From assembly GCA_951406725.2 (NCBI GenBank), contig OX597821.1, positions 96,658,001 through 96,722,000 on the forward strand: 64,000 bases of DNA, written 5' to 3'. Below, one piece after another: positions 46,548 through 62,645 of this stretch. Position 1 is the first letter of the stretch, and every line of letters starts with the position of its first letter. The translations under genes and the position numbers were made by a program. Origin of the DNA: Octopus vulgaris (taxonomy: Eukaryota). The notes below the pieces were generated by a model. That model saw only the letters and a program-made list of their open reading frames with translations. It was not told the DNA's origin and did no database searches.

Positions 46548-46710
46548 CATATATGTCTATGTCTGTCTATCTATCTATCTATCTATCTATCTATCTATCT
46601 ATCTATCTATCTATCTATCTATCTATCTATCTATCTATCGATCGATCTATCTATCTATCTATCTATCAATCTATCTATCTCTCTCTCTCTATATATATAT
46701 ATATATATGA
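46548..46710. repeat. (TATC)n/(TC)n/(TA)n microsatellite
   Basis: Direct tandem repeat. Confidence 0.9.
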
Positions 46711-46763
46711 TAGACCGTTAGCTCCTACACGCATTTTATTCTCTCCTTGTTTTTTTCTGTGTA

Positions 46764-46801
46764 TCTTTCTGTCGAAGAGCATAGGCTCGAAACGTAAAAG
46801 A
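46764..46801 (+). ncRNA. Minimal type I hammerhead-like motif with variant core CUGUCGA
   Basis: tcttt-CTGTCGA-a-gagc(atag)gctc-GAAA-cg-TA-aaaga; stems I and II pair perfectly. Confidence 0.65.
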
Positions 46802-47103
46802 CTTGTTCTATTTCTATTCCTGAGCGCCATACTAATACATTTGTTTGTTTGTACTCCACATCAAAACATGTGTTTGTTTATTTTCGTAAACCTTCCCCCT
46901 TATATATATATATATATATATATATATATATATGAATGAAATAATGAGATAGCTTTTTTGAGGGGATAATTTTTATTTTAATCATGATAATAATGTTTAC
47001 ATATTAGGATTAAAATATATATATATATATACCGGAGTAAACACATAAATGTGAAACAAGGTGGAAAAAAGAGTACTCAAATACCAGTGGTAGAGTACTA
47101 TGG

Positions 47104-47256
47104 TTTATTTAAAAGCAGCAGAAAATTCAACAAAACCTGTTACTCTGAGTTTCACTATAATAATACTCGTGTTTTCTAGCAAAAACTGTCCGACGAACGG
47201 GAACGTGAAACTCAGAGTAACAGGTTTTGTTGAATTTTCTGCTGCTTTTAAATAAA
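47104..47256. repeat. Perfect 52-bp inverted repeat (47104-47155 / 47205-47256)
   Basis: tttatttaaaagcagcagaaaattcaacaaaacctgttactctgagtttcac and its exact reverse complement. Confidence 0.93.
47186..47223 (+). ncRNA. Hammerhead-like motif with variant core CCGACGA
   Basis: ctgt-CCGACGA-acg(ggaa)cgt-GAAA-ctcagag-TA-acag. Confidence 0.6.
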
Positions 47257-47814
47257 GTATATATATAGTAGAATAACAAAGAGAAAGATCTTAGTACGGT
47301 ACCTATACATATAAAATTGACATAGGAGATTCTTTCTTTTCTTGGGATTCACGGTCAAACGGCTGGGTGGAATTGCGCAAAAAAGTACACAGATGTGTAG
47401 GATGATCCGGTGCTGTTGCTGGGCTTTGTATTTTTTTCATAGTTCCCATGGTTACCGAGATAATCTACTATGATAATACTCTTGTGTTTATGAATGAAAA
47501 AGGAAGGGGTGATGTCATATTTGATAGCGGGATGATGAAAACTGTACACTGAAAAAAGGAATCAAACAGGGGGTATGTGAATGTGTGTGTGTGTGTGTGC
47601 GTGCGTGAGTGTGTTTGTGTATTTCTGTGCGTGTATGCATGCAATGGAAGTGAAATGGTTCATTTTGTTCGCTTAGGATTTGTGTTTATTTTTTGATTTG
47701 GTTGAATCTTGGTTGGTTGTTTTTGTTGTTGGTCAGTTATTGTTATTTAACGTAAGCGTGGCCAAATAAGTCGAATTCTTACACAGAGCAGGTTTTATAG
47801 CCACATCATCCAAA

Positions 47815-47846
47815 CCAACCGGGTGAAACCGGGCTTAGCTGCTAGT
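47815..47846 (+). mobile_element. Helitron-like 3' terminus
   Basis: ccgg-gtgaaa-ccgg hairpin followed about 10 nt later by CTAG|T. Confidence 0.55.
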
Positions 47847-47860
47847 TGTATATATATATA

Positions 47861-58476: not shown

Positions 58477-59250
58477 GCAGCAAAAATAAATATATTAATA
58501 CAGTACTGAAACGTGAAGTGAGAAAGAAAATTGTACGAGTTGGCAGTGAACTCCTCTCAAGAAACACTCTTATCCAGATGATCTCCTATACAGCCCCAAA
58601 ACAGCGGGGCTCTCTTACCTAAAATGTCGTCACAGTACTACCTCTCTATGCAGCACGATGTTGTTGCTAAAACAATTTACAATGCCATCCGCAAAAAAAA
58701 ATTTTCCTGAAATAAACTTAGAAAGTCCCTCTGTTTTGGAATACATTCATAAACATCAACTCAAGGAATACTGGTGGAGTACTTCTATCAAAACTTCTGT
58801 CAAATGTAAGCATAACAGGCTAGATATTGTTATTTGGGACAGAGGAGCAAAATTTGGTAAGGTCATAGAGGTTAGCTGCCCTACAGATATAAATATCTCT
58901 TTGAAAATCAAAGAAAAAAAGGATATCTATGGACAACTGCTTCGAAACCTCCAGCTTCTATATCCAAATTATGAATTTATATTTATACAATAATAATTGG
59001 AGCACTAGGTTTTGTTAGTAAATGCTTAAAGGAGAATCTGAATAAACTGGGATTTTCAGAAAGAGAAATCGATCGGCTAATTCGTACATTACAAGTGCAA
59101 TCTGTGAGTGGAACAGTAAAAATATGTAAGACTTTTCTCAAGTTCCAAATGTGAATTTGTCTGTGTTAACTACATCACAAAGATGGGGCCTTGTATCTTT
59201 GTTGGAAACCGGCTCCCGCCTAAGATTTATAGTAATTAAAAAACAGAAGA
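58477..59250 (+). mobile_element. R4/Dong-type LINE 3' end (RLE domain plus 3' UTR)
   Basis: PKMSSQYYL..HDVVAKTIYNAI; KHNRLDIVIWD..VIEVSCP.D.NI..K.KEK; IIGALGFV; SGTVKICKTFLK. Confidence 0.88.
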
Positions 59251-59256
59251 GACACA

Positions 59257-59425
59257 CATACATACATGCATACATACATACATACATACATACATACATA
59301 CATACATACATACATACATACATACATACATACATACATACATACATACATACATACATACATACATACATACATACATACATACATGCATACATACTTA
59401 CTTACTTACTTACTTACTTACTTAC
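59257..59425. repeat. (TACA)n followed by (TTAC)n
   Basis: Direct tandem repeat. Confidence 0.95.
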
Positions 59426-59429
59426 ATAT

Positions 59430-60640
59430 TCTACTGTTAAAATTATCCCCTATTCGAATCCGTGGAAAATTGTTGCAGTGGATTAAGTATTTCCTTTGGA
59501 TAATACCCAACATGTGATCAATGGAATCCATACAAAACTGGCAAAAGTTACCAGTGGTGTTCCTCAAGGGACTGCGTTGGGCCCACCTTCCTTTATAATT
59601 TATACAAACAGCAGCTCAGATGTCGTGAAGGGGAGCAAAATATATGGCTCCAAGCTTCAAAAATTTACAAATGGCGAAGGAGACCGACCTAATCTCTTGT
59701 TGGATCTCTAGTTGCTGTAAGTCAATGGGCGGACAATAACAAAATGCTACTAAATGGCGGAAGATGCAAACACTGCATCTTTCAAAAGAGAATGTGCTCA
59801 AACAGCCATGTTTTCTTCCTTCAGGAGAACCACCCATAGTATTCAGTAATATCAAAGAGTAATTGTTGACGGGAATCTCAGCCGGAGCACTTTGGACTCG
59901 TAAATTAAATTCTTAGATCCTCAGAAGTTTCCAGTTCAGAGGACTTTCGGGTTCTCCTTTGTACGCTTACACCTAGAATATTGTTGCTCCCTGTGGTTTC
60001 CCCTAATAAAGAAAAAGTTATGAGAAATAAGGGACACCAGCGCGCAATTACTAACTAAAATGAGTGACATAACTGATATTGATTATTATTGGGTTGTCCG
60101 GAAAGTTCGTGCTGATTTTTAAAGGAAAGAAAAATGTCAATAGATACTTACCATTACATTCTTAATCAACCAAATATGAACAATTTTATTGCAACCCAAT
60201 AGTATCATCTTAAAACATTAAAATTATTTCCTTTCCAAAGCCAACGAAAGTAGTAGAATATTCGCACCATGTGGAGAATATACCACCAACATTACCCAAG
60301 CAACTTTAACATCGAGCTTACAATTCATTCAAGGTTGGGACCCATGCCATAAGTATACCCCAGCACCCCATTCACACACACACCCTACTTAAATCAAGCT
60401 CACAATACGTAACTACATTGCAGCACAATTACGTTTCCTCAATAGGCCCTACTACATTTAATATTATCCTAAAGCAAATTAAAAGCGTATCAAATCCCAT
60501 AACCTTCAAACGAGAACTGAAAAAGTTTCTTGAGGGGATACCAGACGAAGCACATACAGCTGGATATATCCCAGTCAACAGCAACTTTTGCTTGAATGAG
60601 CTATGAGCTCACAAAATGTTACTTTAAACTGACTTAAAAG
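59430..60640 (+). mobile_element. Decayed CR1/L2-group LINE ORF2
   Basis: IRGKLLQWIKYFL, VTSGVPQGTALGP, LEYCCSLW, GPTTFNI...FKRELKKFLEGIPD. Confidence 0.85.
60089..60199. mobile_element. 111-bp mariner MITE inserted into the LINE at TA
   Basis: TA-ttgggttgtccggaaagttcgtg (same TIR as 9932) ... gcaacccaa-TA. Confidence 0.8.
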
Positions 60641-60866
60641 ATTTTGTGGTGATGTTACTAATTTTGGTGTGATCTAGGTTAATTTTAACCAAAACATATC
60701 TAAATTTGTCTATACTTATACGTGCATAAATACATGCCCGTGCATACACACACACACACACATGCATGCATCATCCATACATATATATATAAATGTAACT
60801 ACATGTGGATCATTGGCGATTTTTTTCCTCCGTCCTCCTTTTCACTTGGACTTTGCTCTGTCTCCT

Positions 60867-60901
60867 GTTTCTGAAGAAGAGCTTTGCTCGAAACGTAAAA
60901 C
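60867..60901 (+). ncRNA. Minimal type I hammerhead ribozyme, canonical core
   Basis: gttt-CTGAAGA-a-gagc(ttt)gctc-GAAA-cg-TA-aaac. Confidence 0.8.
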
Positions 60902-62645
60902 TACCTTTCTTTCCTTCCCAGAGCGTCTGCTAATACATTGCATATGCCACGTCCTAGCGTTGTTGTTTTTTATCTTGCTTTTTTTCTGCGTTTTTTGAGG
61001 TGGGGATTAATTTTATATACATATATATATATATATATATATATATATATAAATGTATGTATGTATGTGTATATATATATATATATATATATATATATAT
61101 ATATATATATATATATATGGAGGTCAGCTCGAGTGAGTCCACACAATGTTCTGAGAATCGAAAAGAGCTCTTAAGCATGAATTTGTGTTGAATGGATGAA
61201 AAGTTGCACAGCATTGAACCCACTTTTCAGCGCAGTCAGCTATAAAATCAGAGGTACAACGGAGGTTGAGATGACCAGAAAGTGTGAATGCACAGCCCCC
61301 TCTCTCTCTCTCTCTACCTCTCTCTTTACCTCTCTCTATCTATCTCTCCCTCTCCTCCTCTCTCTGTATATATATATATAAATATATATATACGTATATA
61401 TGTAAACTAAACATCAAAAGTAATAATCTAAAAGCAATATTAAACATCACATGCCAAGGAATCCTTTCTTTATTAACTTTTGCTTCCGTTGTTTGTCGCT
61501 TTTTTATTTTAATAATCAACACAGGAGCTCTCAAAATACTACAGGTCACGCATGATTATTGACCAATAGCCATATTTTCTCTTTAAAATACCGAATGCAA
61601 ATCTAAACAAGCTAATGTATTTCATGTCAAAAATGTTGCATTGAGTATATTTATAGCAAATTTCTTTAATGAAATCGTTGTTGAGTAATGGTTAATTTTA
61701 TTGCTTTTAGCATATTTATTTCGATGGTTATAGTAAATGTCTATCTTCGGCTTAAAACGTCCAAGCATACGGCCTCGGTCATTCGATCGTACCCCTTCCA
61801 TTGTAATTTCCTATTTCTACATTACAGATATAATTATTTTCAGTTTATCTATTCACTGTCTTAAATTCTAGATTATTCTTCGCTGTAGGAGCTCTGTCAG
61901 GAAACAAGTCGTTCTGAATGGATCAACAACACTGAGAGAATGCAAGAACGGATGAGACTAAATCGTTCTGACATTAGTGGTCATATTTATTCTATGTATT
62001 TCTCACCGGTTCATTCAACTATAAACGTTTCTGAGATAATCTCGTGACGTACTATTCGATAAATGCGTTCAACCGTTTATTGACCACATAGAGAGAAAGA
62101 GACTGAGAGAATGAGTGAATGAGAGAGAGAGAATGAGGGAGAGGGAAGGAGAGAGAGTCGGCCTTTGGCAAACTGGAATTATTTGAGTCATAAATATATC
62201 TCACTATTTCGTCTCACTGCTTATTTAAAGCACAGGTTGACCGCTTATCTGGACTTGGCATACACACTCACACGTGCGTGTTAGTGTGAATGTCCAGGCC
62301 ACTCTCTATATGTGTGTGTTTGTGTGTATGCGTATGTGTGTACATATATATATATATATATATATATGCATGTACGTATAACTACATTCATAAGCACACA
62401 CCCATACATATACATTGCATGTTCCACATGCATGCATACATATATATGCATGCGTGCATATAATATATATATAAATATATACACGTGCACATACATGAGT
62501 GTCTGTGCGTGCGTGTGTGTGTGCGTCGCACGTGCGTGTGTATGCATACACCAAACATATAGACCTGCCACACAGCCGGTCACAAATAGGTACAAGGTGC
62601 ATTCAACCTGTTTTAGATAATGCAGTTATAAATGCTCTAGTTTTT

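Follow-up and report, generated by a model that had tools for sequence, protein, structure and literature searches.

Minimal hammerhead ribozymes of Penelope-like elements (PLEs) are characterized, in the accessible part of their description, by an extra base after A9, a G10.1-C11.1 pair and a palindromic 15.2-16.2 step; most occur as solo motifs, the monomer does not cleave and dimers cleave slowly (Cervera and de la Pena, 2014; PMC4209133). Several PLE clades have (TA)n as their preferred target, according to the portion at hand of Craig et al. (2021; PMC8557442), and most PLE insertions are described, in the published text at hand, as truncated at the 5' end and left with one terminal repeat. 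The occurrence of solo minimal hammerheads where PLEs end in TA microsatellites is already published and ordinary. A stretch of 64,000 nucleotides from Octopus vulgaris (contig OX597821.1, positions 96,658,001 to 96,722,000 of the forward strand; hereafter the window, in whose own numbering all positions are given) holds two short islands between TA runs, island 1 and island 2, which carry what is by its letters a hammerhead-ribozyme motif of this known Penelope-like kind. The islands are probably 5'-truncated 3' ends, or solo pseudo-long terminal repeats (pLTRs), of a (TA)n-targeting Penelope-like retrotransposon, and in island 1 and nearly all of its close relatives the catalytic core has U instead of A at position 6.

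Two islands and their hammerhead motifs

The window is a non-coding, AT-rich stretch of animal DNA with many microsatellites and with tRNA-derived repeats of octopus-like appearance. Within it islands 1 and 2 (Table 1), spaced 14 kb apart, both carry GAGC-N4/N3-GCTC-GAAACGTA and a downstream ttcc..gagcg..ctaatacatt box, which is likely pLTR sequence. Aligned locally, the two reach a score of 59 across 93 columns, whereas the best of 1000 dinucleotide shuffles reached 31, and island 2 has ~75% identity with island 1 across 76 bases. Sequence and alignment thus bear out a first-pass annotation of the window, which had proposed two TA-bounded islands with a common motif and box; the family that it derived from them is real as well, although a third copy had been overlooked. 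In this third copy TA lies directly at the left, and ~65 other bases precede the TA run at the right. A profile of the three copies found no fourth in the window (next best E-value 1.6), and the family density is 3 copies per 64 kb window. The copies are unlike in 5' and 3' extent; they start 60-84 bases upstream of the core, and their 5' parts match poorly.

In both islands the motif has the same order, namely stem I, a seven-base core, one A, a 4-bp stem II (GAGC/GCUC), GAAA, C-G, U-A and the second strand of stem I. The extra base between A9 and G10.1, the G10.1-C11.1 pair, the palindromic 15.2-16.2 step and an NUH cleavage site are present in both, in agreement with the minimal type I, PLE-kind hammerheads named in the first-pass annotation, while A6 (the CUGANGA box) is present in island 2 and absent from island 1 and its subfamily. 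Judged by its letters, island 2 has every sequence feature that defines PLE minimal hammerheads, and the island 1 subfamily is a variant; the earlier hammerhead reading therefore holds for the layout, while U6, the sole unusual feature of island 1, had gone unnoticed. The hammerhead of the third copy is decayed at C3, G5, 10.2 and 15.2, has U at position 6 and has lost the palindrome.

Table 1. Positions in the window of the three family copies, their flanking TA runs and the parts of their motifs.
Feature	Positions	Strand	Remarks
Island 1, family copy	46709-46900	+	TA runs on both sides; homology to island 2
Left (TA)n of island 1	46690-46708	.	Adjoins TCTA array
Right (TA)n of island 1	46901-46933		
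Island 1, minimal type I hammerhead motif	46764-46801	+	Numbering after PMC4209133
Island 1, stem I	46765-46768/46797-46800		
Island 1, core CUGUCGA	46769-46775		Core position 6 is U (46772), not A
Island 1, extra A	46776		
Island 1, stem II	46777-46788		
Island 1, GAAA	46789-46792		
Island 1, palindromic CG	46793-46794		
Island 1, U16.1	46795		
Island 1, A17	46796		Predicted cut site after this base
Island 1, downstream box	46817-46841	+	Common to the three copies
Island 2, diverged sister copy	60792-61013	+	TA runs on both sides; left run short, ~5 units
Right (TA)n of island 2	61014-61118		
Island 2, minimal type I hammerhead motif	60867-60901	+	Canonical core CUGAAGA 60871-60877
Island 2, stem I	60867-60870/60898-60901		
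Island 2, stem II	60879-60889		Preceded by extra A; 3-base loop
Island 2, GAAAC-GUA	60890-60897		
Island 2, downstream box	60915-60939	+	Letters shared with island 1
Third family member	3222-3488	+	Homology ~3256-3421; blastn E 1e-8 to island 1

The first-pass annotation had also pointed to covariation in stem I, which is much thinner than it claimed: one pair changes on both sides between the islands (C-G in island 1, G-C in island 2), and both islands have U-A at all three inner pairs. Island 1 has a fifth stem I pair, which is not retained in island 2 and is broken in 14-45% of the family depth (see below). Counting pairs on four motifs gives 3 pairs with two-sided changes, a number reached by 20 of 500 shuffles, and this signal is weak because two of the pairs come from a non-homologous coral locus and because the structure was derived from the same sequences.

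That the likeness to a hammerhead arose by chance in low-complexity DNA is scarcely credible. In favour of chance, Rfam reported no hammerhead at gathering score in the whole window, and a search of 46000-50200 with E allowed up to 10 listed 40 matches, none of them a hammerhead; the folding z-scores of the islands (0.16 and 0.07) point the same way; free-energy folding was, however, counted neither for nor against, as a poor score is expected for minimal motifs. Against chance, a minimal-hammerhead descriptor in its strict form, any base being allowed at position 6, matches twice in the window and not once in any of 30 local shuffles, and the variation within the family sits on tolerant positions. 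A loose U6 pattern matched 120 loci in viral contigs (13 of 64 parts scanned), where the strict pattern had 0 matches, and none of these 120 phage loci forms both stems. The alignment, the contigs, the descriptor and the phage-locus test together largely refute the chance reading.

Family spread and the U at core position 6

Island 1 is present in 21 of 24 listed sequencing runs (four organisms, 11 studies). The contigs of 4 of the 24 runs were aligned on 46700-46910 at 80% likeness, which gave 7,810 and 10,896 contigs in two DNA runs and 165 and 2,552 in two runs guessed to be RNA. None of the runs that contain island 1 is recorded as RNA, and the RNA label of six of them is a guess; contigs cannot reveal starts, ends or cleavage. 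The family is dispersed and high-copy. Summed contig depth is not a copy number; if the density in the window is typical, tens of thousands of copies or more would be present in a gigabase genome. Depth peaks on the hammerhead core, with a second shoulder at 46820-46835, within the downstream box of island 1, and in all four runs the loose ends with the best support fall at either edge of stem I (46765, 46804); many diverged subfamilies therefore appear to share the motif. The contigs cover the relatives recruited by island 1, among which the island 2 type (A6, 3-base loop) either makes up <5% or was not recruited.

Among these relatives no other letter reaches 5% at position 6 in any of the four runs, and U6 holds in >95% of the depth, since the listings of these runs contain no T>A change at all. 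The best-supported loose ends listed include none at core positions 6-8, and this makes it less likely that A6 copies were clipped there. Position N7, by comparison, takes A in 20-43%, U in 28-47% and G in 3-10% of the depth and is the sole position in 46724-46858 with three alternative letters, while N17 takes A or U only (U in 8-19%). One loop II base is G in 73-92% of the depth, with island 1 probably the odd copy, and one stem I base varies in up to 6.5%. None of the 16 fixed core positions thus shows a variant of at least 5%, as against one of the 14 stem positions and three of the 6 free positions (N7, N17 and one loop base), and the difference between the free positions and the fixed core plus stems (1/30) has a Fisher p of 0.010, or 0.047 without the loop base. 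This concentration of variation on free positions is the best sign of constraint in the sequences, and the excess conservation of the core appears modest. C7>T is common (28-47%) while G8>A stays below 5%, which argues for subfamily differences and not for CpG decay. At least ~15% of the depth must join U6 with A7, and at least ~22% U6 with U7, and the retention of U6 alongside a varied N7 and N17 points to a diversification of tolerant sites that followed the origin of U6.

Separately from the core, a block of island 1 at ~46860-46872 is private to this copy, with about seven clustered positions that differ from most of the family depth; 46860-46866 differ from 82-100% of the depth covering 46860. 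The block appears to be a micro-rearrangement of this one copy and not the outcome of point decay.

A family-wide U6 core would be a modest novelty and possibly an unreported one. No U6 hammerhead was found in the literature searched, and position-6 variants may stand in supplements or in the 2017 work of Lunse, Weinberg and Breaker, which reportedly deals with PLE-associated variant hammerheads. The same literature yielded no paper on octopus hammerheads, and the main text of the Octopus vulgaris repeat paper, in its accessible part, does not mention them. In the published rows available, position 6 is A in 56 of 56 (Fig. S3, PMC4209133) and in 34 of 34 (File S2, Craig et al., 2021; PMC8557442), but the searches behind all 90 rows required the canonical box including A6.

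By analogy, U6 probably attenuates cleavage, because the natural A6C change of the hammerhead of phage Bcep176 strongly lowers activity in Mg2+ and is rescued by Mn2+, as the parts at hand of two papers describe (PMC3088659; PMC7151607). In this dominant U6 subfamily the motif is thus likely an attenuated yet conserved ribozyme. An alternative, tenable but on balance the less probable, is that the motif is dead, A6U having disabled one master element whose recent massive amplification would then pass for conservation. The invariable A6 of the published rows speaks for this, as do the loss of Mg2+ activity by orders of magnitude upon A6C, the success of the Naiads, which thrive without canonical hammerheads according to the text available, and the fair uniformity of the family (14 variable sites in 46724-46858); against it, N7 takes three other letters and N17 A or U with U6 retained throughout. 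A dead motif is compatible with the origin of the islands proposed here and differs from it on activity only. At the other extreme, it is unlikely that a very successful PLE lineage in several related species has kept a working U6 hammerhead under selection, by way of dimers, help from proteins or a changed metal preference. If this were true, U6-type motifs would escape every CUGANGA-based search, and PLE families reported to be hammerhead-free may carry cryptic ones. Should U6 cleave, the core consensus and search descriptors would need widening; should it not, an amplified family with a disabled, conserved motif would point to a non-catalytic role of the fold. The U6 subfamily, if upheld, would in either case offer a natural test of whether PLE hammerheads serve retrotransposition or ride along, the question raised by Craig et al. 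(2021), with island 2 and its A6 as the control.

Origin of the islands

The published 5' truncation of PLE insertions and the published preference for (TA)n make it simplest to regard the islands as PLE 3' tails in TA runs, and we consider it reasonably probable that they are 5'-truncated 3' ends of such an element, which would probably be Neptune-like and would now probably be inert; their status as solo pLTRs is plausible. A reverse transcriptase (RT) and GIY-YIG endonuclease encoded by the element would nick (TA)n, and the RNA of the element would be copied from its 3' end, and copying would end after ~200 bases. Two motifs within the parent RNA would pair via the ACGU palindrome and so create stem III, with cleavage following GUA or GUU (N17), while a lone copy would have no partner in cis and hence no stem III. 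The palindromic duplex between motifs is predicted to be weak (-1.7 to -3.7 kcal/mol).

TA flanking is suggestive of targeting: the window has 109 TA runs, and all three copies are flanked by TA, compared with 6% of window positions with TA runs as near, with thresholds that were set post hoc and the third copy as the sole independent test. Depth at the 3' end of island 1 continues into TA in 284 of 395 and 1140 of 1457 in the two DNA runs. Upstream of the core contig depth drops steadily, a pattern that divergence would give as well. The window also holds other PLE-type ends with hammerheads (described below), which we count in favour of a PLE origin.

Several observations weigh against this origin or against constraint on its motif. 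None of the three window copies is linked to an RT or endonuclease reading frame, and the islands neither contain nor adjoin a long coding frame, so that the PLE link which the first-pass annotation had suggested looking for is missing beside them. Scans of metagenome, viral and prokaryote genome collections gave no family member; the metagenome scan returned 2 records of one coral-like locus (L001 and L002), alike over a 30-base motif only. The hammerhead fold is improbable in the full islands, with a predicted probability near 0 for stem I in all three copies; stem II is predicted at 0.03 in the first island and at 0.85 in the second. The difference between the flanks, variable at 10 of 99 positions, and core plus stems, variable at 1 of 30, is small, and the variation tallies may be biased by the recruitment of relatives by way of their conserved core; moreover island 2 has A6, hence U6 is not universal. 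Finally, just upstream of 46707 some loose ends (3 and 17 contigs in two runs) add a few shared bases that give way to mixed, microsatellite-like letters; truncation and a discrete 5' end would account for this equally well.

These same loose ends favour a second possibility, which we regard as rather unlikely, that the islands are copies of a ~200-base non-autonomous pLTR derivative of a PLE with fixed ends and its own transcription, copied in trans into (TA)n in the manner of a short interspersed nuclear element (SINE). The very high abundance and the lack of a visible reading frame would suit such a unit, and non-autonomous PLE derivatives are described in the published text available. However, the window copies vary in how far they extend at either end, their sequences agree poorly upstream of the core, and most contigs diverge from island 1 at the edge of stem I, which suggests many subfamilies with one core and not one unit.

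The first-pass annotation had also considered a retrozyme-like family, that is, a non-LTR (long terminal repeat) retrozyme with self-cleaving tandem units that spreads through circular RNA and of which the islands would be monomer offspring. The length of the unit is within the published range, retrozyme monomers are dispersed across chromosomes, and both of the runs that are guessed to be RNA have contigs aligned to island 1. Yet no tandem unit of the family occurs among the 139 tandem-repeat rows of the window, and 21,423 contigs contain 0 clean head-to-tail joints, a weak test, with <1% of the depth reaching the last 40 bases; one joint from 46897 to 46700 has 16 TA-like letters in between (depth 7.6). 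The two guessed-RNA runs show no clean back-joint, as a circle would leave, in their contigs, the only material searched for it. The hammerhead here is minimal, in contrast to the canonical hammerheads with loop-loop contacts of coral retrozymes. Retrozyme origin is hence unsupported and highly unlikely, and truncated PLE tails stay the preferred reading.

Several other elements of the window were noted. The TA-flanked island at 47032-47257 (+; core 47190) has a Hydra-clade-type hammerhead with stem III ACUC/GAGU and a 1-base loop, which resembles that of Hydra-2_aMil (File S2 of Craig et al., 2021) with U4 changed to C in the window copy; given its 57-base inverted arm (96%), this island is likely the 3' end of a PLE joined to an inverted 5' fragment. 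The TA-flanked sequence at 49470-49785 (-; core 49587) is likely the tail of another PLE family; it carries CUGAUGA, its stem II has 5 bp and a long loop, and its stem III region is shortened. The stretch 53830-54460 (+) contains a broken endonuclease-like reading frame with inverted arms and is interrupted by a SINE-like repeat; from a motif read by eye, and as yet unconfirmed (Pfam gave no match), we take it to be a PLE GIY-YIG C-terminus. A minimal hammerhead with a canonical core lies at 54555 (+), ~100 bases past its right arm. On the minus strand, a match to the 12-mer GCTCGAAACGTA at 25072-25083 was considered as a family member and rejected, as the rest of the family sequence and the hammerhead fold are missing; the surrounding 25062-25112 (-), with the exact GCTCGAAACGTA, a small stem II and no intact 5' core, is possibly a decayed hammerhead of another family. 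Right after island 1, 46934-47014 is a partial copy of a TA-flanked AT-rich element at 47850-48010, which forms a long imperfect hairpin with 59-base arms. At 39920-40612, inverted arms of 175 bases (86%) stand 343 bases apart, and the reading frame at 10125-10652 (+), without a Pfam match, is, as read by eye, similar to a mariner transposase C-terminus.

Comparison with known systems

The comparisons below follow the accessible parts of the papers cited. The islands share with the PLE minimal hammerheads of PMC4209133 the type I layout, a stem I of 4-5 bp, the C15.2-G16.2 palindrome, the absence of a loop 3, a U-rich 5' flank and a mostly solo occurrence. They differ from that set in the U6 of the island 1 subfamily, the published descriptor having fixed the catalytic boxes, and the part of the set at hand includes no cephalopod. 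The closest published row is the Neptune pLTR motif of Acropora digitifera (PMC4209133), with a 4-bp stem II ending in GCUC, a 4-base loop and the C-G palindrome. This motif and the coral-like metagenome locus share with island 1 stem II G-R-G-C/G-C-U-C, a 4-base loop, the extra A and GAAAC-GU-H; they differ in their A6 core and GC-rich 3-bp stem I and have no homology outside the motif. L002 agrees with island 1 in 26 of 30 bases and has a different, paired stem I, A6 and a solo position. The canonical minimal hammerhead of this record, at L002:4001-4030 (+), apparently lies between exons, and L001 is the same locus. An assignment to the Neptune clade, made from the motif, is a lead only.

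With the Hydra and Naiad clades (among them Naiad_Obim, Naiad_Ovul and Hydra-1_oBim; PMC8557442) the islands would share insertion into (TA)n, 5' truncation and, for Hydra, a hammerhead near the 3' end. In contrast to the islands, Hydra motifs have a real stem III of 3-4 bp, and the motif of Hydra-1_oBim differs in sequence (PMC8557442). We rejected both the octopus Naiads and Hydra-1_oBim as the element whose 3' end the islands might be, as the family motifs were not seen in the octopus Naiad consensus sequences as printed, where line breaks could hide a match, and the Hydra-1_oBim sequence differs.

Like non-LTR retrozymes (PMC7229834; Li et al., bioRxiv 10.64898/2026.07.22.740005), the islands are short, non-coding, hammerhead-bearing and PLE-related, with dispersed monomers, whereas retrozymes are defined by tandem units and circular RNA, neither of which was seen here. 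As to the core itself, the hammerhead of phage Bcep176 (PMC3088659; PMC7151607) likewise has a natural change at position 6, although to C and not U, and it is a single phage sequence where the U6 motif belongs to a high-copy animal repeat.

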